The position numbers were made by a program, and so were the translations under genes. From Candidatus Cloacimonadales bacterium (lineage in GTDB: Bacteria > Cloacimonadota > Cloacimonadia > Cloacimonadales > JAFGVF01), in contig OY762964.1 of NCBI GenBank assembly GCA_963667035.1, forward strand, positions 1,504,001 through 1,568,000: a stretch of DNA of 64,000 nucleotides. The letters are read 5' to 3'. The notes below the pieces were generated by a model, which saw only the letters and a program-made list of their open reading frames with translations, ran no database searches and was not told where the DNA came from. This document shows, one piece after another, positions 50,211 through 60,827 of the stretch (its first letter is position 1; every line of letters starts with the position of its first letter).

Positions 50211-50608
50211 ATTTACCTCTATTTATCTTTTATTTTATAAATACATCTTCTATGAGAAACAAACTATAAACCTCCATTTTCGAGTCAATAAAAAGGTTTT
50301 AGTTTACATCTGTGTGTAGTTTACTCATCTCATTTTTGGATTGAAGACGTTTTTACCAACTCATCTATTTTCATGTCAATAGCAAAATTGTTTTAGATTA
50401 ATTTTCTTCTCATTCGCCATAAATATCTCTCTTTAAGATACTTTAAAGGGTTACTTCCCATGTAGTGCAAGTGTCATCACTTGCACATAGCTCGGAGAGC
50501 TATAATTGTGAATATCTTCAAGTAAGGTTTGACTACCGGATTCCTGTCAGTGTAACTTACTGGCGATGTCAGAGCACATAAGACTAGTACGTTTGGATCA
50601 AGTTGCAG

Positions 50609-52857
50609 TTAATCAAAAGGAATCCCAATCTGTTCACTTACTCCTTTAAAATAATCTATAACTAGCTCATTATGTGTTAGTTTTGCATACTTATATGATT
50701 CAACTATCAATTCTATCGCTTTCTTTTCATCACCAATCTGTGCTTCTGTAAATCCTAATGCTAAAAGTGTAAGAGCTAAACCTTGGGGTTCTTTTTCATT
50801 TTTATAGAGTATTATTGCTTGAGTATATAAATCCCTTGCTTTCTCTGGTTCTCTTAAACGACTTTCCAAATCTCCAAGGGATTTCAGAGCGTTTGCAAGA
50901 CCAAGATTAGACTGTTCTTTTGTATAAAGCTCAATTGATTTATTATAATTATCCCTTGCTTTCTCTGGTTCACCTAAAAGACGTTCCAAATCTCCAAGGG
51001 ATTTCAGAGCGTTTGCAAGACCAAGATTAGACTGTTCTTTTGTATAAAGCTCAATTGATTTATTATAATTATCCCTTGCTTTCTCTGGTTCACCTAAAAG
51101 ACGTTCCAAATCTCCAAGGGATTTCAGAGCGTTTGCTTTACCTTTTATAAAAGAGAAAGCAATGTTTATTAAATCTCTACTTGTTACTGCTCTAAATTGG
51201 TATGCATTAGTTAAACTATACATAAGAATACTAAGAGCGTCAATATCAGGTTTTCCAATTCTACAATCTTGTTTAACAAGCTGAGTCAGTGCTGTAAAAT
51301 GAAAGAGGATTAATTGTCTGGCAGACAAATTCTCTTCAGTTGATTGAATTCTATCAGCTATTTTTGCAATGCGTATGAAATACGAATAGATTACATCTCT
51401 TGCTTCTTTCCAGGAAAACCCGTTCTCCTCATTTATTGCTTCATCCAGAGCATATTGAGCAAGTGGAGGAAGCATAGTATAACCTGATTCATTTTTCACA
51501 AGGATATTGTGTTTACACAAAATGCTTATTGATGAGATTTCATCCTGGAAGAGATTCTTAGCTGTTATTTCAACCATTTTTTCAGCAAAGATAGCTGCAA
51601 TTGTCCATAACTTGAGAGCAATAGGGTTCTTGTTACATATTGCATCACTGGTTAATCTTAGCGATATTTGAAGTGATTCCAATCTTTCACTACTACATTC
51701 TGTGTCTGCAAGTTTAGCACCTTCTTTTTCCCATTGTTCATAAATCGTGTTAAGAGAATAGCTATATCCCAATCTGGCAATTAGTACTATTGTCAGAGCA
51801 TGACACCCAAGTTTTTTCTGTATGAAATCTTGAAGTACTTCATCATCTTTTTTGGGAGTTTGATTACCATTCCAAGCTAAAATAAATAAGGAGATTGCCT
51901 CATCGATTGAAAATGGGCATATTATAATTGGCTCTTCGAAACAAACATCAAGTGGAACTCTTGATGAAAATAGAATTCTAATACTGCTATTTATTTTCAG
52001 TTCTTCAAGTTGCTTTCTTCCGATTGGAGTTGAGACAATGCTTTCAAGATTATCAAGATAATACAATCCCTCATCAAGTAGAGGCAAAAGTTGTATGAGA
52101 TTATCAACATCGTTTTTTCCTAAGGCAGAACCAATATGAGAATATAAACTACCTGGATCAGCATTATCAGGAATATTGATGTAATAAGCATTATCTTGGG
52201 GTTTCAACTTTAACCATTCTTTAAGAGATGCCTTGCAAACCTCTGTTTTACCAATACCAGCCACACCAACTATTTGAATTGGTTTGCCATCACCTAATCT
52301 ACTCACTACTTTCTTTATATCATCATCTCGTCCTATAAGCTTCTTTTCTCTCGGTTCTAAGCGTCCGTCATCAGCTCCTTTTAGCTTTGCAGGTTGTAGA
52401 ATAAGATTTTCATTTTTTAATTCTACATTTGGAGTAATATCAGTTACTTTTTTTGAATATTAGAAATCTCTTTTAGAATATTTAACAACAATGTTATATT
52501 AATACTATTGTCACCACTATTCTTTAATTCATTTTCAAAAGCATTATTTATATCTTCTATCTGACTTTGCTCTATATTGAATCGCTCATATACTTCTAGA
52601 ATTATACTCGATGAGTTATCCTCAATGCTGGAAGGTTCTTCTAAATAGTTATTTGCCATCAAATACGCATCAATCTCACTTCCAATCTTTGAGACATCAA
52701 TACTAGTACCTACAACTGATTTAAATGCTTTTTTATACAACTTAGCAATCGTTCTTGAATGTGAATCCATCGCTGTAAGATAAGGAGCTAGCTTTTTCTT
52801 CACCTTAGTAGCTAACCCAATAATTGCTAGATATTCTCCTGCTCCTTTCGGTAGCAT
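50609..52857 (-). CDS. NLR-like STAND P-loop ATPase with C-terminal TPRs, encoded by two ORFs joined by a -1 shift (about 749 aa if joined)
   Basis: The downstream frame is open from 52459 and contains LIGRDDD before Walker A GVAGIGKT, then YLDNLE, SSR, GCHAL and TPRs. The upstream ORF (52444-52857) has an AGGAGG RBS and ends CAA AAA AAG TAA. Confidence 0.75.
50831..51136 (-). repeat. 120-bp intragenic tandem repeat (40-aa TPR unit, about 2.5 copies)
   Basis: 50881-51000 is identical to 51001-51120; unit ANALKSLGDLERLLGEPEKARDNYNKSIELYTKEQSNLGL. Confidence 0.95.
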
Positions 52858-53079
52858 CTTCCCTCCTAATAGTTGCCTTTACTATATCCGATTTAACGAT
52901 TCTTTCATTTAATTGTCAAGTTGAAGTTTATGATAAATAGATGTTGTTGATGCTTATTAGTAAATATGTAAACTGTCATTGGCTTTGATGGCATGTTATT
53001 AATAAGGTTTTAGATCAAAATCCACCTCAAAAATACTCAGTTTTCTCTTCAAGATAGTTTGGTTGGAATGGGAAAGCCT

Positions 53080-53152
53080 CCCGTGGGCATCCCGTGGGGC
53101 TCGCGTGTCTCTCCCGTGGCTATGCATGCGTGGGGCACGAGATACCCACGGG
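53080..53152. repeat. 11-bp-phased inverted repeat element C
   Basis: CCCGTG at 53080, 53091, 53113 and CGCGTG at 53102; then CATGCG 53125, CACGAG 53136, CACGGG 53147. Confidence 0.85.
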
Positions 53153-53400
53153 AGGGTTAGGTTTAGTTATCATATTTCTTTCAATGTATCTTGCTGACGA
53201 TGTCAGCATGGCGACTCAGGTGAGTTGCAGTACCATTTTTCACTGCCATTGACATCTAATTATAGCTTACAGACTATTAATTATTAATTACCTATAATAG
53301 TTTCTTCACCTTCATAACTAAATTTCTTAACTTCGAAAATCATTGCATTGATTTCCTGCTTTTATCTGACTCATTTTTCTATCTTAACTCGCAAGAGACA

Positions 53401-53473
53401 CTTGTTAGCTCCCCGTTAGATACCCGTTAGATACCCGTTACAGGCAATGGGAAAGAAACGACAGTCTGACGAG
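53401..53473. repeat. 11-bp-phased inverted repeat element D
   Basis: CTTGTTA 53401, CCCGTTA 53412/53423/53434; then CAATGGG 53445, AAACGAC 53456, TGACGAG 53467. Confidence 0.85.
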
Positions 53474-53594
53474 GTACTGATTGAACTTTATTCTCTATTA
53501 TGTTCGAACAATGAAAGTGCGTAGGAATTGCTAATTTATTCCTAAAACAGATAATTTCCAATTCATTTTGAGTTAGTTTAAATCGTAAAAATGC

Positions 53595-53622
53595 AAAAGG
53601 GCTGACATTTGTCAGCCCCTTT
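53595..53622 (-). terminator. intrinsic terminator after the carboxyltransferase operon
   Basis: AAAAGGGCTGAC-ATTT-GTCAGCCCCTTT. Confidence 0.8.
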
Positions 53623-53645
53623 CAATATAGTATATCCAACTAATC

Positions 53646-55631
53646 TTAGTCAGCTTTAATAATCATCAGATTATCACCTTTAGCAACAGAATCACCTGAT
53701 GAGAAAGGAATTTCAACAACTGTTCCACTCACAGGGCTAGGAATATTGTTGTACATCTTCATAGCTTCAAGCACAAGAACTGTCTCTCCTGCTTCAACAT
53801 GGTCACCTACGTTCTTCTCGTAGCTAACAAGCATACCGGGCATTGGAGCTTCAACAGAGTTTCCACCTTCAGTAGCAACAGGTTTAGCCGCAGGCTTAGG
53901 TGCCGGAGCGGCAACAGGTGCAGGTTGTGGCTTTGGTGCAGTAACTTTAGGGGCTACAGGACGAGGAGCACTTGCTACTATAGCAGGCATCTCTTTGTCG
54001 TCTACTTCAACCTTGAAGTAATCACCATCAACATAAACATCAAAAGAACGTACATTCTCTGATTTTTCAGGAACCTCTTTAGTAGGTTTAGCCGTTAACT
54101 CACCGCTAAGAGCTTTCTTAACAAGCTCTTCTTCTTCCTTAACCTGTTCCAATGTTTTTGGTTTCACATCTTCCGGAATATCTTTCTTACCATACTTCCA
54201 TTCCAGGAATCTCTTTCCGGTAATTGGATAAAGAGCAACTATGAGTTCATCATCAAGATCCTTTGCAAGACCTTTAACACTCTCTTGAACCGCTGATAAT
54301 TCCGGTTCAATAATATCGCCGGGGCGACAAGTAATAGGTTCTTCACCACGAGGGTAACCTTTCAGAGCTTTTGCTCTGACTTCCGGATCTATATCAAGAG
54401 TAGTTTTACCATAGAGTCCGAAACAAAGGTCTTTAACCTGCTCGGTAATTGATTTGTACTCTCCCATCTTATCATCAAAGAGCACATTGTTTACTGTTTG
54501 AATACCAACAATCTGACTTGTCGGCGTTACAAGTGGTACCGTACCTAAATCTTTTCTAACTGCAGGAAGTGTCTCGAATACATCATCAAGCTTATCAAGA
54601 GCATCCATTTGACGGAGCTGGTTAACAAGATTAGAGAGCATACCACCCGGAGTCTGATGAATGATAACATTAGTATCAATGATAGAGAACTTAGTATTAT
54701 CGGCAAAATGCTTATACTTAGGAATTACTTTCTCAAGTTCTTTATCAATAGTAGCAAGTGCTTTGATGTCAAAACCTGTGTCCCTAGTTGTTCCCAAAAG
54801 AGATACAACAAGAGGTTCAACTGCGGCATGAGCTGTTCTGTAAGCATAAGGTGCCATACATGTATCGATAATATCAACTCCTGCTTCAATGGCTTTGAAG
54901 AGAGTTAAATCTCCCATACCTGATGTGAAATGAGTATGTAAATGGATTGGTACCGAAACAGCTTCTTTTAAAGCCTTAATCAGATTATATGCATCATAAG
55001 GAGCAACAAGTCCCGCCATATCCTTGATGCAAATAGAATCCGCACCCATAGCTTCTAATTGTTTTGCTTTATCAACATAATAATCGATGTTATACACTTC
55101 ACCGCCCATTCTCATTTCTGTTAGAGAATAGCAGATAGTTCCTTGAAAATGTTTATTATTCTTTTTTATTACTTTTAAGGCTGTCTCGAAATTACGGAAA
55201 TCATTCAAGGCATCAAATACACGGAAAATGTCTATTCCATTATCACAAGCTCTTTGTACAAATGCTTCGACAACATCATCGGCATAGTTCCTGTAGCCCA
55301 CTAAGTTCTGTCCTCTGAGCAACATTGAGAATGGTGTGTTCTTAATATATTTCTTAAGAGTTCTGATTCTCTCCCATGGATCTTCTCCCAGATAGCGATG
55401 CATTGTATCAAAAGTAGCACCACCCCAAACTTCCATAGAATGGAAACCGACTTTATCCATTGCCTCGGCAACAGCAATCATGTCTTCGGTTCTACCTCTG
55501 GTTGCAAAGATGGACTGATGTCCGTCTCTGAAAGTAACGTCTTGAATTTTAATCGGGTTTATAGCTTTAGGACGATTGACGTCATAGTTCATTTCTGCCA
55601 TTTGCAGAACACCATGTTTATCAAAATTCAT
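53646..55631 (-). CDS. pyruvate/oxaloacetate carboxyltransferase (PycB/OadA/transcarboxylase 5S-like) fused to a biotinyl domain
   Basis: RDGHQS, WGGATFD, IKDMAG, HTH, PGGM.SNL, LVTPTSQ and biotin motif EAMKM after a Pro/Ala linker; start 55631 after GGAGG. Confidence 0.9.
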   Translation of the reverse strand: MNFDKHGVLQMAEMNYDVNRPKAINPIKIQDVTFRDGHQSIFATRGRTEDMIAVAEAMDKVGFHSMEVWGGATFDTMHRYLGEDPWERIRTLKKYIKNTPFSMLLRGQNLVGYRNYADDVVEAFVQRACDNGIDIFRVFDALNDFRNFETALKVIKKNNKHFQGTICYSLTEMRMGGEVYNIDYYVDKAKQLEAMGADSICIKDMAGLVAPYDAYNLIKALKEAVSVPIHLHTHFTSGMGDLTLFKAIEAGVDIIDTCMAPYAYRTAHAAVEPLVVSLLGTTRDTGFDIKALATIDKELEKVIPKYKHFADNTKFSIIDTNVIIHQTPGGMLSNLVNQLRQMDALDKLDDVFETLPAVRKDLGTVPLVTPTSQIVGIQTVNNVLFDDKMGEYKSITEQVKDLCFGLYGKTTLDIDPEVRAKALKGYPRGEEPITCRPGDIIEPELSAVQESVKGLAKDLDDELIVALYPITGKRFLEWKYGKKDIPEDVKPKTLEQVKEEEELVKKALSGELTAKPTKEVPEKSENVRSFDVYVDGDYFKVEVDDKEMPAIVASAPRPVAPKVTAPKPQPAPVAAPAPKPAAKPVATEGGNSVEAPMPGMLVSYEKNVGDHVEAGETVLVLEAMKMYNNIPSPVSGTVVEIPFSSGDSVAKGDNLMIIKAD

Positions 55632-55661
55632 TCTTCCTCCGGATATATTCAATTTCTTTAA

Positions 55662-55853
55662 TTAACGTTTTAAAACACGACGTTGCATCATTTGATTATT
55701 AATCATCTGATTCTGACGTCCGTAAAAAGCCCAACTTGTAGGTAAGTTCGGCGGTTTTATTTCAGGAGCAGGCAACTGTGCCCTCTCTGCTTGAATGTAT
55801 TGTAATACTGCAGAAATAGCTGCAATTTGTTTCTTCTTCATATCTTCCATCAT
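55662..55853 (-). CDS. small accessory subunit of acyl-CoA carboxyltransferase (epsilon-like)
   Basis: IAAISAVLQY...SW...GR pattern; lies between the two carboxyltransferase genes; GGAGG RBS. Confidence 0.65.
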   Translation of the reverse strand: MMEDMKKKQIAAISAVLQYIQAERAQLPAPEIKPPNLPTSWAFYGRQNQMINNQMMQRRVLKR

Positions 55854-55862
55854 TCACCCTCC

Positions 55863-57416
55863 TTACACAGGGATGTTTCCATGTTTTTTAGGAGGTAATG
55901 ACTCACTCTTAGTACAAAGAACGTGCATTGCATCAATTAGCCTTGCTCTTGTTTCTGAAGGTCTTATCACGGCTTCAATATAACCTCTTTCGGCAGCTCT
56001 ATACGGATTATTGAAGAGCTCTTCATATTCATGAATCTTTCTTGCTCTTTCTGCTTCAGGATCTTCAGCTTTATTAATCTCGGTTCTATAGATAATATTA
56101 GCTGCACCTTTAGCTCCCATAACGGCAATCTCAGCAGACGGCCATGCAAATATCATATCTGCACCAAGGTGTTTTGAGCTCATGGCAATATATGAACCAC
56201 CGTAGTTCTTACGAGTAACAACTGTCATTTTCGGTACTGTTGCTTCGGAGTAAACCCATAACAGTTTAGCACCGTGACGAATAATGCCACTCCATTCCTG
56301 ATGGCAACCCGGTAAGTAACCGGGAACATCAACAAGTGTAAGTAACGGAATATTAAATGAGTCGCAGAAGCGAATAAAGCGAGAAGCTTTATCACTTGCA
56401 TCAATATCTAAGCATCCGGCTAACACGATGGGTTGATTAGCAATTATACCAACAGTTCTTCCGTCTAATCTGGCAAAAGATATGATTATATTCTGAGCAT
56501 AATACTCATGAGGTTCATACATATAACCGTCATCTACAATGGCTTTGATTACGTCACGCATATCATAACCCATCATAGGACTATCGGGAATTATGCTGTC
56601 AAGCTCGGGAGCGAGTCTATGAGGATCATCTTCCGTTGGAACAATTGGAGGTTCCTCCATATTGTTGCTAGGGAGAAAGCTCAAAAGTTCTCTAATACTT
56701 TCAAGTGCTTCCGCATCACTTTCACAAGCAAAATGAGCATTTCCCGATTTGGTGTTATGTGTCCAGGCACCGCCTAACTCCTCTTGAGTTGTGACTTCAC
56801 CCGTTACGGCTCTGATAACATCTGGACCTGTAATGAACATGAAACTGGAATTCTTCACCATATAGATAAAGTCTGTCATAGCAGGACTATAAACTGCACC
56901 ACCGGCACAAGGTCCCATTATTGCAGATATCTGAGGTATAACACCGGAGAAACGTGAGTTGCGTATAAAGATATCACCATACCCTTTTAATGCGTCAACG
57001 CCTTCCTGGATTCTGGCACCGCCCGAATCGTTAATTCCAACAAGTGGAACACCGGATTTACCGGCTAAATCCATTACTTTACATATTTTAGCTGCATGCA
57101 TTTCACCAAGAGAACCCGCTCTAGCGGTAAAATCCTGTGCAAAAGCACAAACCGGTCTTCCGTTTATTAATCCGTGTCCGGTTACCACACCATCACTAGG
57201 AATATCTTTCGTTTCCATTCCGAAATTTGTGCAACGATGCTTAACAAACTTGTCAATTTCCCTGAATGTTCCCGGATCGAATAAAAGGTTTATTCTTTCT
57301 CGAGCAGTCAGCTTACCCTTATTATGTTGTTTCTCAATTTGGGCTTCACCGCCCATCATCTCAATCTTCTTTTCTTTTTCCAATAAGTTATTGATTTTGT
57401 CTTTTGTAGTTGACAT
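55863..57416 (-). CDS. methylmalonyl-CoA/propionyl-CoA carboxyltransferase subunit (PccB/MmdA/12S family)
   Basis: GKLTARERI, DSGGARIQEG, GPCAGGAVY, DVPGYLPG and KKHGNIP motifs. Confidence 0.93.
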   Translation of the reverse strand: MSTTKDKINNLLEKEKKIEMMGGEAQIEKQHNKGKLTARERINLLFDPGTFREIDKFVKHRCTNFGMETKDIPSDGVVTGHGLINGRPVCAFAQDFTARAGSLGEMHAAKICKVMDLAGKSGVPLVGINDSGGARIQEGVDALKGYGDIFIRNSRFSGVIPQISAIMGPCAGGAVYSPAMTDFIYMVKNSSFMFITGPDVIRAVTGEVTTQEELGGAWTHNTKSGNAHFACESDAEALESIRELLSFLPSNNMEEPPIVPTEDDPHRLAPELDSIIPDSPMMGYDMRDVIKAIVDDGYMYEPHEYYAQNIIISFARLDGRTVGIIANQPIVLAGCLDIDASDKASRFIRFCDSFNIPLLTLVDVPGYLPGCHQEWSGIIRHGAKLLWVYSEATVPKMTVVTRKNYGGSYIAMSSKHLGADMIFAWPSAEIAVMGAKGAANIIYRTEINKAEDPEAERARKIHEYEELFNNPYRAAERGYIEAVIRPSETRARLIDAMHVLCTKSESLPPKKHGNIPV

Positions 57417-57495
57417 TGAAACTCCTTTTGTATAGAGTTAGAATAATCACATACAAATGAGCTTTTCGGATATAAGTCAAGCTAAATTATTATAT

Positions 57496-58464
57496 ATGAA
57501 AGTGAGGACAGCATTAATGACATCAGTAGAAAGTGATAAGAAAAGTGTTGCAGTAGTACTGGGAGGCGGAGCAGCTTTAGGCTTAGCCCATATTGGAGTA
57601 TTGAATGTCATTCAGAAGCATTTTAATATAAAGGGTATTGTTGGCACAAGCATGGGAGCAATAATTGGCGGGATGTATGCATTAGGTAAATCTCCCGAAT
57701 GGATATTGGAATCGTTAAAAGAATACAATTACTTAAAAATATTTAATCCTATGCACTTCGATTTTAGTATGAAAGGGTTTTTTAATGGTAAAGTTCTATT
57801 AGATGAACTAGATAGCTACACCGAAAAAGCAGTTATTGAGAATTGCGAAATTCCTTTTTATGCTGTTGCTTATGATATTCATACCAAAAGATCGGTAATA
57901 ATCCATAAAGGAAGCTTATCAAAAGCAATGCGAGCTTCTTCAAGTGTTCCCTATGTTTTCCGTCCCTTTAAATATGAACAATACTTATTCCTGGATGGAG
58001 GAGTCGAATATCCTGTCCCAGTGAACTTTGCTAAACAGCTTTTTCCTGATACTATGATTATTGCCGTGAATGTTCAAGAGCCATTACCCAGAACTGCCGA
58101 GTTCTTCAAACCTGTTAAGGCAAAGCATAGCAACAAGAAGGAATTAGGTTTCGTGGAAGTATTACTGGAAAGCGTATATGGTAACCAAGCGTATTTAAGT
58201 ATAAATGAAATCATCAATGAAAAGCCTGAGATTGTCATCAATCCTTTCAATCCCGATTATTCGTTCAAAGACTTTCAAAAAGTCAAAGAGTTCTATGAAT
58301 TAGGCAAGAAGACTGCTGAACGAGAGATGAGTAACTACTTACATAAAACTGAGAAAGTAGACCCTCTGGCAATCTACAAAGAAAGAATAGAGCAAATCCG
58401 CAAGAACTTCACAGAGATGATTCCTATCCTTAAGGATTTACCTAATCCTTTTAAAAAGGAATAA
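57496..58464 (+). CDS. patatin-like phospholipase
   Basis: GGGAALGLAHIG, GTSMG (catalytic Ser) and DGG motifs; exact start uncertain (57457, 57496 or 57517). Confidence 0.9.
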   Translation: MKVRTALMTSVESDKKSVAVVLGGGAALGLAHIGVLNVIQKHFNIKGIVGTSMGAIIGGMYALGKSPEWILESLKEYNYLKIFNPMHFDFSMKGFFNGKVLLDELDSYTEKAVIENCEIPFYAVAYDIHTKRSVIIHKGSLSKAMRASSSVPYVFRPFKYEQYLFLDGGVEYPVPVNFAKQLFPDTMIIAVNVQEPLPRTAEFFKPVKAKHSNKKELGFVEVLLESVYGNQAYLSINEIINEKPEIVINPFNPDYSFKDFQKVKEFYELGKKTAEREMSNYLHKTEKVDPLAIYKERIEQIRKNFTEMIPILKDLPNPFKKE

Positions 58465-58478
58465 CTGCTATATATAAG

Positions 58479-58506
58479 AAAGAGCCCCTTTTACGGGGCT
58501 CTTTTT
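58479..58506. terminator. bidirectional intrinsic terminator
   Basis: AAAGAGCCCC-TTTTAC-GGGGCTCTTT between convergent genes. Confidence 0.8.
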
Positions 58507-58519
58507 CAACTAAAAACTA

Positions 58520-59500
58520 TTATTTTACTTTCTCTTTTCCTATACTGATTCCACATTTAGCATTATCAGTAATTTCAGGTAACTTAGAAACAACTTGAGA
58601 ATCACAAATGTTCTTTGAAGTATTTGTAAGAGTTATTTCTTGATTCATTGTCCATGGTAAATTGAACTGTTGACCTTGTCTCCAATAGGAATAAGTGTTT
58701 TCATTTTGCCAGAAAGCCGCTACCACAGTGTTTGAATAAGCACGATAATATCCAATATTATAAAGTGCATCGTCTACAGGAATGACTATTTGGTCCACAG
58801 TCTCATGGGCTAACTCGTAATTTACATACAATGGAGAAAGATTATGTGAACCATTATTTCTCATTTTAAGATAGAAATAATCTTCGCTAACCACCAAGTT
58901 CCAAGTGTATTCCGAACCGGAAATTGTTTCGGTTGAAGACCATTCAAGCTTCAAGCCGACTTGTGAGCCTTGGGTTGTTTGTCCCGAAGTACTTGCATAA
59001 TATGAATAAGAATTATCTGTTTTAAGAACCCTAAAGGTCACTGTTTCATCCGGATTGATTATTTTTGTGCCATATCTGTTAACAGAGATATCGATATCGG
59101 TAAAGGTTGTATTATAGAAACTTAAATCAAAATATCCAGAGTCTAAAGTCATTACAGATATAACATCCGAATAAGAACTGTTTCCATCACCATTATGAGC
59201 TCTTACTCTATAGTAGTAATGAGTGTCATCTGATAATCCGTTCACGTTGCAATAAGTATCCTCAACGACTCTACTACGATAGTCCGGTAAATAGTTATTA
59301 AAATTAACGTCAGTCGCTACATCAAGACGATAACTATCTGCATCATCAACAGGTTCCCAGTTTGCAACAAAACTATTTTCGGTAACATAGCTTGCATCTA
59401 GAGCATAAGGAGCATCGGGATAGTTAGCAGAAGTAGGATCTTCACAAGATATTAGCACAAAACTAACAATAAATAGCAACAGTAACTTAGTAATTTTCAT
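58520..59500 (-). CDS. fibronectin type III domain lipoprotein
   Basis: Lipobox LISC; SFVANW..V..A.SYRLDV...GL...THYYYRVRAHN..G.S.YS. Confidence 0.8.
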   Translation of the reverse strand: MKITKLLLLFIVSFVLISCEDPTSANYPDAPYALDASYVTENSFVANWEPVDDADSYRLDVATDVNFNNYLPDYRSRVVEDTYCNVNGLSDDTHYYYRVRAHNGDGNSSYSDVISVMTLDSGYFDLSFYNTTFTDIDISVNRYGTKIINPDETVTFRVLKTDNSYSYYASTSGQTTQGSQVGLKLEWSSTETISGSEYTWNLVVSEDYFYLKMRNNGSHNLSPLYVNYELAHETVDQIVIPVDDALYNIGYYRAYSNTVVAAFWQNENTYSYWRQGQQFNLPWTMNQEITLTNTSKNICDSQVVSKLPEITDNAKCGISIGKEKVK

Positions 59501-59590
59501 AAATTCCCCTTTCAATTTGTTTACAACTCTTTCTCAAGTGTTATTATCAATGAAAGGCATCTTTCGTTGCATGTCAAGCGTTAAAAGAAG

Positions 59591-60827
59591 CTGGCATCCC
59601 CCCGTTTTTTATCATAAGCATGTCATCTGCTCCCATTCTGCATGACAACCTTGATACTTTGGAACAAAGTAATGCTTCCAATCTCTGAATAGATTTTTAA
59701 CAACAACCGATAGTCTGTAGTAGATAAACTTACATAATTCCTTTAGATTACTCTTTTTACTAAGCATAATGTGTTGATACATTTCCGCAAAGTCGTATCG
59801 ATACTTATCCAAAGAATAAAGATAACTGACTGCCAATAATAACATGCAGTTCAGATTTCTTAACCTGTCCAATGTCATAACCTGCATATCTTCCCACGAA
59901 TACTCCTGCTTCACATGACGGTGTACTTCTTCTACTTTCCAGCGGAGACGATACCCTCTTATTGCAGTTGTTATCAACTCCAAATCACTAAGGTCTCGAT
60001 TGGGGAAATCACAGTTCAAATAGAAAAAACCTTTGACGCGAATGATATATGAAGCCTCATTCTCTGTTAAATAGTTGATTACTACCTTATCATCATAACC
60101 TCTATCCATTACATATATCCCTTTATTTCCTGAATACACCTGAATATCATTGATCCGATCAAACACAGACTGTTTCAGTATGCCCGGATCTTCGTCGTTA
60201 GTATGCAATTCAGACACAAGAGGACGTATCTCAAGCGAATGACCTTCTTTTGATACTCTGATTATATCTAATACTTCATAACCGTTACACCACTCGCCTG
60301 TACTGCCGTCTCTAACTCTGGTTAATCCTTCCATCTTCTTTGAATGGCTTTTCATTATGTCGCTGGGATCAATGACTATCAGGTCATAAGATGCTATCTT
60401 CTTGCTTTCACAAATCAGATGAATATTTGATAGATTTTTGTACAACTCAGGTTTTGATAAATGACGACGATATCGTTCGCAGAGCTTTTCTAATGAGATA
60501 TTCACTTCATGGCTCATTGCAATCCTTCTGATTATACAACTACCGGATTTCAAAATGCCACTGACAAGCTCTTTTACAAATTTCTTCTCTTTGATAGTAC
60601 AGCTATGTGTGACTTTGTTGATGAATTTTGAAAATTTAGCTTGCAGATTATGCTTTTTTATTATTGATAGTTCCATATAGTGAGTTCCTTTTGTTTTATT
60701 TTAAGCGTAACAACAATAAATAGGGACTCACTCTTTTCAAGCTTTTTCTTGACTATTTTTATACTTAAATTACCACTTTTTCAGTCACTTATTATGACCA
60801 TTATTCTAAATTTCGGGGGGATGCTTG
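59591..60827 (-). mobile_element. IS4-family-like insertion sequence, 1237 bp
   Basis: Terminal inverted repeats CTGGCATCCCCCCG / CGGGGGGATGCTTG; 10-bp direct repeat TTAAAAGAAG at 59581-59590 and 60828-60837. Confidence 0.9.
59612..60676 (-). CDS. DDE transposase (IS4-like)
   Basis: IVIDPSD, VMDRGYD and YREK-like motif Y.LRWKVEEVHRHVKQ. Confidence 0.88.
   Translation of the reverse strand: MELSIIKKHNLQAKFSKFINKVTHSCTIKEKKFVKELVSGILKSGSCIIRRIAMSHEVNISLEKLCERYRRHLSKPELYKNLSNIHLICESKKIASYDLIVIDPSDIMKSHSKKMEGLTRVRDGSTGEWCNGYEVLDIIRVSKEGHSLEIRPLVSELHTNDEDPGILKQSVFDRINDIQVYSGNKGIYVMDRGYDDKVVINYLTENEASYIIRVKGFFYLNCDFPNRDLSDLELITTAIRGYRLRWKVEEVHRHVKQEYSWEDMQVMTLDRLRNLNCMLLLAVSYLYSLDKYRYDFAEMYQHIMLSKKSNLKELCKFIYYRLSVVVKNLFRDWKHYFVPKYQGCHAEWEQMTCL

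Follow-up and report, generated by a model that had tools for sequence, protein, structure and literature searches.

Bacterial NLR-like proteins have been described as a tripartite design in which N-terminal effectors (TIR/SEFIR or alpha/beta-hydrolase) are exchangeable and, in STAND-TPR members, a P-loop STAND module is combined with a TPR sensor (bioRxiv 10.1101/2022.07.19.500537). Another described arrangement is the Bell/BASS amyloid-NLR pair, in which a short helical ORF (120-140 aa) overlaps an NLR gene (bioRxiv 10.1101/2020.01.06.895854). For the -1 frameshift heptamer A_AAA_AAG, used by dnaX and IS3 elements, shiftiness in Escherichia coli has been tied to the sole lysine tRNA of that host, and Thermus, with two lysine tRNAs, expresses dnaX by polymerase slippage (PMC5009743). 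Heptamers without stimulators shift in E. coli at 2-10 times a background of 0.055% (PMC4066793), and slippage of E. coli RNA polymerase is undetectable on runs of fewer than 8 A (PMC6260861). Unclustered (singleton) frameshifts in GeneTack were mostly recent indels or errors (PMC3711429). No description of recoding or switching at an NLR linker was found among the titles and abstract openings covered, which lay mostly outside subscription journals, and the accessible text of the Bell/amyloid and bacterial NLR preprints mentions no linker split (the word 'frameshift' occurs 0 times and once, respectively, the latter for phage mutants).

We analysed an NLR-like gene within a 64,000-nt stretch of DNA (hereafter the window) from a genome assembled as one contig (3.1 Mb, 98% complete). 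The split of this gene is real: a 137-aa ORF closes on a stop codon at a run of seven A, and a STAND-TPR part follows in the -1 frame (Table 1). The layout given in the earlier note was reproduced, namely the coordinates and phase of the upstream ORF, the -1 frame open to 50609 with no ATG, GTG or TTG before 52306, the position and spacing of a badly placed downstream stem and, by arithmetic, a fused product of 749 aa (137 + 612). On the plus strand the break-point run reads T7 (52448-52454); it is the longest A/T run in the split gene, the six other runs listed being A6. The first start codon of the -1 frame lies past the LIGRDDD motif. The TPR array has a period of 120 and an identical run of 153 nt, and scores 79 bits with TPR_12 against a cut-off of 30.1.

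Table 1. Features of the split NLR-like gene, in window coordinates.
Feature	Position	Strand	Remark
Shine-Dalgarno (SD) site AGGAGG ahead of upstream ATG	52862..52867	-	pairing with the 16S 3' end of this genome, -11.3 kcal/mol
137-aa ORF, all-helical N-terminal domain	52444..52857	-	ends CAA AAA AAG TAA
A7 run + G, break point	52447..52454	-	heptamer A_AAA_AAG at 52453-52447
TAA stop, upstream frame	52444..52446	-	abuts heptamer
8-bp stem, 17-nt loop	52395..52427 (arms 52427-52420/52402-52395)	-	begins 19 nt 3' of heptamer, -6.2 kcal/mol; probably incidental
-1 frame, 616 codons: linker, STAND NTPase module, TPR repeats	50609..52459	-	no second lesion
Family-conserved pre-P-loop motif, residues 22-44 of -1 frame	52328..52396	-	5' of first start codon
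First in-frame GTG, without usable SD	52304..52306	-	anti-SD pairing -2.3 kcal/mol
Walker A GVAGIGKT	52244..52267	-	conserved with 23 homologues
Walker B region YYLDNLE	52043..52063	-	invariant in 24 aligned sequences
TPR array, three 120-nt units, units 1 and 2 identical	50660..51136	-	Pfam TPR_12 E 3e-22

Compared with the described systems, the window gene resembles the NLR-like STAND-TPR proteins (bioRxiv 10.1101/2022.07.19.500537) in its P-loop STAND module and TPR sensor, and once fused would have an N-terminal domain of ~135 aa with Walker A near residue 197 (~210-216 in TIR members). Unlike the all-in-one proteins, however, its N-terminal domain is an unnamed helical one rather than a TIR or hydrolase domain and lies out of frame, and its NTPase, to which no subfamily is assigned, matches NB-ARC, nSTAND1, nSTAND6 and AAA_22 only below the Pfam cut-offs. 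The in-phase A_AAA_AAG and the -1 frame relation are as in E. coli dnaX and IS3 (PMC5009743, PMC4066793), but the host carries a second tRNA-Lys (CUU), there is no strong SD-like stimulator upstream, the stem is weak and distant, and the site is not conserved. The gene shares with GeneTack singletons (PMC3711429) an unclustered frameshift, a 7-nt poly-A run and homology on both sides, although here contigs of three sequencing runs argue against an error at A7. A short helical ORF overlapping an NLR gene also recalls the Bell/BASS pairs (bioRxiv 10.1101/2020.01.06.895854), although the downstream frame here has no usable start and no common amyloid-like motif is visible. The window gene behaves as a broken NLR-like gene would, and in stimulator strength and conservation it does not pass as a dnaX/IS3-type site.

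Both halves are one gene, because a conserved STAND motif precedes the first start codon of the -1 frame and the N-terminal domain is fused to its body in 6/6 other members of its family; the earlier note had likewise proposed a single NLR-like STAND-TPR gene split at the A-run. A homologue search for the STAND part, confined to proteins of 338-1078 aa (8000 candidates), returned 54 non-self homologues (best 44% identity), among which 52 had an N-terminal region in frame, for the most part of the TIR/SEFIR or alpha/beta-hydrolase type. The proteins P0040 and P0048, both on 2-kb contigs, start at or inside the STAND module. The -1 frame keeps 85 of 94 family-conserved positions (23 homologues range from 0.84 to 1.0). 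The conserved motif begins at its residue 22-26, ~25 codons ahead of the GTG, and the family-conserved L26, D31, R33, L34, P36, G43 and R44 all lie 5' of that codon; as a break in a gene, the split thus goes beyond chance. Two ATT codons further upstream have no SD (-2.1 and -0.8 kcal/mol). Independent initiation at 52306, which the earlier note had doubted, is indeed unlikely, given the difference in anti-SD pairing between the GTG and the upstream ATG (Table 1) and the loss of the conserved motif.

The 137-aa ORF had no Pfam match above the cut-off and, searched alone, no relative in longer proteins, metagenome contigs or the Atlas. It first matched the N-terminus of a 1099-aa ORF, that of L104 (E 6.8e-5 for a single genome among the 232 searched; E 3e-11 by pairwise BLASTP). 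A close relative of the 1099-aa-ORF sequence was recovered in an independent search at the N-terminus of a STAND-TPR gene, in frame with the rest, and a profile search added three members from the phylum and one further protein. A profile of six non-self members had the 137-aa ORF as its sole match among 8776 frames of the genome (22.5 bits, versus a best of 10.2 in 500 shuffles). The ORF is a remote member of a family of helical domains that has no name, measures ~140 aa and is seen in seven proteins (window 52444-52857, L104/L106, L108, L120/L125, L121/L126, L122/L127 and P0062). The domain continues in frame in all six other members, into an NB-ARC-like module, two NACHT-like bodies, a TPR/PIN protein and two long bodies without a Pfam match. 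The predicted structure of the ORF is helical (pLDDT 64); Foldseek with the single-sequence model returned no match at E 0.001, and a fold search with a six-sequence model returned nothing usable (best Z 6.3, rmsd 5.5 over 108 residues). Two repeat-protein matches (SEA, RPA_C) among 1.8 billion representatives were discarded as summed-repeat artefacts. A weak match, L105, at a contig start just ahead of two ORFs that we take to be GrpE-like and DnaK-like, was also discarded. In L108 (G138:C243, 127-2448, minus strand), where the domain is fused to an NB-ARC-like/TPR body, one in-frame TAA lies 47 codons past Walker A. The family, with its varied STAND, NACHT and TPR bodies, is worth keeping.

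Of the 232 genomes of the phylum, the search found the STAND part only in that of the window, with no orthologue in the 231 others. A DNA search of 41 related genomes found only the gene's own locus beyond four matches of 31-47 nt, which were discarded as chance. A scan of genome contigs gave four TPR-only matches, two scans of viral sequences gave two P-loop fragments and nothing, respectively, and plasmid searches matched 1 and 2 records. The matches from PADLOC were all weak and generic. Synteny revealed no empty site: in G001, a genome of the same genus, 22 kb separate the two flanking genes, which are oppositely oriented. The split gene is a lineage-restricted accessory gene, and its architecture suggests that it is probably of the defence type.

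We assessed whether relatives share the break among the best 25 of 79 metagenome matches (Walker A was found in 78), a set that partly overlaps the protein matches. The frame was open for at least 200 codons upstream of Walker A in 23 of these 25 loci; one of the remaining two had its own start and the other ran off the contig end. The split and heptamer, which the earlier note had envisaged as possibly kept among homologues, were not seen in the relatives available: a -1 split occurs in 0 of the best 25 loci and 0/6 other domain members, all at most 44% identical and not true orthologues. An A8 allele was never seen in the collections searched, where the best relative has 44% identity. Broken NLR-like genes are nevertheless common among relatives, with in-frame stops in L108, L067 and L086 and frameshifts in L078 and L093. 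Among 53 NACHT/NB-ARC loci examined in the phylum, seven had fewer than 120 open codons upstream, four of them with their own start. A NACHT gene, L157 (G151:C161; 788-1387, 1348 onward), is split -1 where its linker contains an A9 run; it was discarded as a second programmed case, since an in-frame TAA within its N-terminal domain indicates decay. Other apparent frameshifts occur in L165 and L191, and short downstream frames near contig ends in L031, L034, L040 and L075. The frameshift in L191 (G010:C170, near 2640) appears to fall at a C-run right before Walker A of an ORF that is presumably a Cdc6/Orc1-like ATPase.

The split probably reflects a recent loss of one base, leaving a null or faintly leaky, revertible allele. 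This recent inactivating deletion, which the earlier note had listed as an alternative, fits best with the lack of a split in close relatives, the host tRNAs and stimulators of median strength. The ancestor would have been a single NLR-like gene of 749 codons (helical N-terminal domain, linker, STAND NTPase, TPR sensor), from which replication slippage probably removed one A in the longest A-run in the lysine-rich linker (A8 to A7). The loss would have moved the STAND-TPR part to the -1 frame, the phase of the run giving A_AAA_AAG and then TAA. Translation from the strong SD would now yield mainly the 137-aa N-terminal piece, with full-length receptor arising presumably in traces by low, unprogrammed slippage or in revertants only. 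The rest of the gene is undecayed, which suggests that the event was recent. Three observations speak against a plain mutation: the genome's only homopolymer-linked split falls exactly on a domain boundary, an undecayed downstream frame also fits maintained expression, and in a STAND-TPR family unrelated to this one, 3/3 diverged copies keep a -1 split of the same kind. Read as a freshly broken accessory gene, which we regard as the best reading, the locus carries little wider weight.

Selected phase variation, with A7/A8 acting as a reversible ON/OFF switch of a costly defence gene that was assembled in its OFF state, strikes us as rather unlikely. The run is the longest in the gene, sits at the domain boundary and leaves the remainder intact, and in AT-rich relatives A-runs of at least 7 are denser in linkers (8 in 4500 nt, three of the eight belonging to one family) than in STAND bodies (11 in 23782 nt). 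However, lysine-rich linkers alone could explain this density, and short runs are common and stable in the genome, whose intact frames contain 175 A7 and 37 A8 runs. Moreover, the contigs listed for the three runs, all from a single sample, include no A8 version, although rare variants are lost from contigs, and no orthologue shows the run conserved.

Programmed -1 ribosomal frameshifting at A_AAA_AAG, yielding free N-terminal domain and 749-aa receptor in a set ratio, seems more doubtful still. Such a design would account for the in-phase heptamer, the immediate stop, the release of a complete domain, the strong upstream SD and the undecayed downstream frame, and three copies of another family (L045, L057 and L070, below) suggest that it may exist in NLR-like genes. 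A stop codon right after the heptamer could favour shifting. However, the heptamer and stem are not beyond chance expectation. The host encodes tRNA-Lys(CTT) at C1:384419 in addition to tRNA-Lys(TTT) (ARAGORN), and 210 in-frame A_AAA_AAG occur incidentally in 1762 intact ORFs of the genome; relative to AAG_AAA, a preceding A brings no greater depletion (210/565) than a preceding C (86/247). The stimulator context is median among the 210 incidental sites, with upstream anti-SD pairing at least as strong in 54% of them and a downstream fold at least as stable in 55%, while the z-score of the stem varies with the segment folded (70 nt, -1.3; 100 nt, -1.4; 57 nt, -2.8; stem only, -5.1). The site called correctly phased in the earlier note is in phase, but its phase is no sign of programming, being automatic on loss of one A: the intact distant relatives L050, L056 and L076 have in-frame linker runs xAA AAA AAA G, which minus one A give an in-phase A_AAA_AAG by construction. 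Among the 75 coding A8 runs, 11 would yield A_AAA_AAG on losing one A, and the same phasing is found in 93 of the 426 coding A-runs with at least 7 A. Host dnaX has no in-frame A_AAA_AAG, and the IS3-type elements of the host use A9G in 2 of 4 copies inspected (the region is absent from the other two, L131 and L132); in L134 and L133 (G000:C1, ~835600 and ~2228500), the in-frame A9G lies in orfA and orfB follows in the -1 frame. With the second lysine tRNA, the median stimulators and a split absent from close relatives, the earlier proposal of a programmed shift giving two products finds little support. By the E. coli threshold, A7 is also too short for RNA polymerase slippage, although thresholds from E. 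coli may not apply to the host phylum.

A sequencing or consensus error, with a true run of A8 and a continuous gene, is very improbable, and assembly error an unlikely cause of the split. A7 is matched gap-free by contigs of three sequencing runs (all from one sample and one study, platform and library unrecorded), each run having a single 8514-nt contig that agrees with 51107-59620 at every letter and needs no gap; a fourth run, X4, contributed no contig, and no RNA run was listed among those containing the stretch. These runs share sample and study and are probably the assembly's own source, which leaves some room for a common error, and the comparison is at the level of contigs, which hide rare variants. 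Even so, contigs unbroken at a word depth of 3-6 would imply accurate reads. Intact frames of the genome contain 61 A/T runs of at least 8, and no other homopolymer-linked split was found in it: a strict scan gave five overlapping frame pairs without a nearby start, with a homopolymer only at the A7 split, and among 46 frame pairs from a run-centred scan, only the A7 split lacked both a start further upstream in the new frame and one within 13 codons.

That the halves are two separate genes, adaptor and self-starting receptor as in Bell/amyloid-NLR pairs, is barely credible: L033, of the same STAND family, appears to be such a pair with a common short motif, but here neither the GTG nor the two ATT codons have an SD, a GTG start loses the pre-P-loop motif, no short motif is common to both halves (by eye) and the domain family is always fused. 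Furthermore, HetE-N (PF20701), which we take to be Bell, matched neither the 137-aa ORF nor anything in the genome. In L033 (1573-2097 and 2866-4818), a short helical ORF and an NLR N-terminus share the common amyloid-like motif (by eye) and are separated by an intervening ATPase-like ORF.

A stronger case than the window gene for recoding or switching at NLR linkers comes from L045 (2594-2965 and 2950-5322), L057 (446-817 and 802-3174) and L070 (2645-3016 onward), three ~95% identical copies from a single metagenome, each with a neighbourhood of its own. Each has a 123-aa HetE-N ORF (56.5 bits) with an Asn/Gln/Ile-rich tail that ends over an A10 run, followed by a STAND-TPR part in the -1 frame with no start until the pre-P-loop motif. 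The split is kept in 3/3 diverged copies, and pN/pS amounts to 0.22-0.26 over the first 270 codons of the STAND frame and to 0.24-0.53 in the part upstream. We regard these paralogues as strong candidates for an NLR-like gene with programmed slippage, although all three could instead have the same assembly error at an A11 run. This separate family, with its -1 split under purifying selection, is also worth keeping. By extension, the linker A-run might in some bacterial NLR-like genes be a built-in switch that makes the free effector or adaptor domain abundant and the full-length receptor scarce, with the window gene and its new helical domain family as one instance, a generalisation that we consider improbable but under which the two-component NLR design would exist in a recoded version. 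Were such recoding or switching real, bacteria could adjust the proportion of free effector and receptor through one gene, and gene calling would be systematically breaking such receptors in two.

Around the split gene, a strong intrinsic-terminator-like hairpin follows the upstream carboxylase-like gene (window 53595-53622, minus strand), which suggests that the NLR-like gene is transcribed on its own; promoter-like matches were at shuffle expectation (14 versus 14.2). The AT-rich intergenic region 5' of the gene includes a GC-rich segment with repeated CCCACG/CGTGGG words (53060-53160). Just 3' of the gene, positions 50461-50560 hold a short dispersed repeat that BLASTN matches at 21 other places in the genome, over 40-100 nt, and that has high depth in the run contigs. 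A DDE_Tnp_1 transposase ORF at 59612-60676 (minus strand) is multi-copy by contig depth. Elsewhere, ARAGORN predicted a tRNA-Sec (G000:C1 1779700-1779794) and a tRNA-Leu with an AAG anticodon (1794010-1794098), which is unusual in bacteria.
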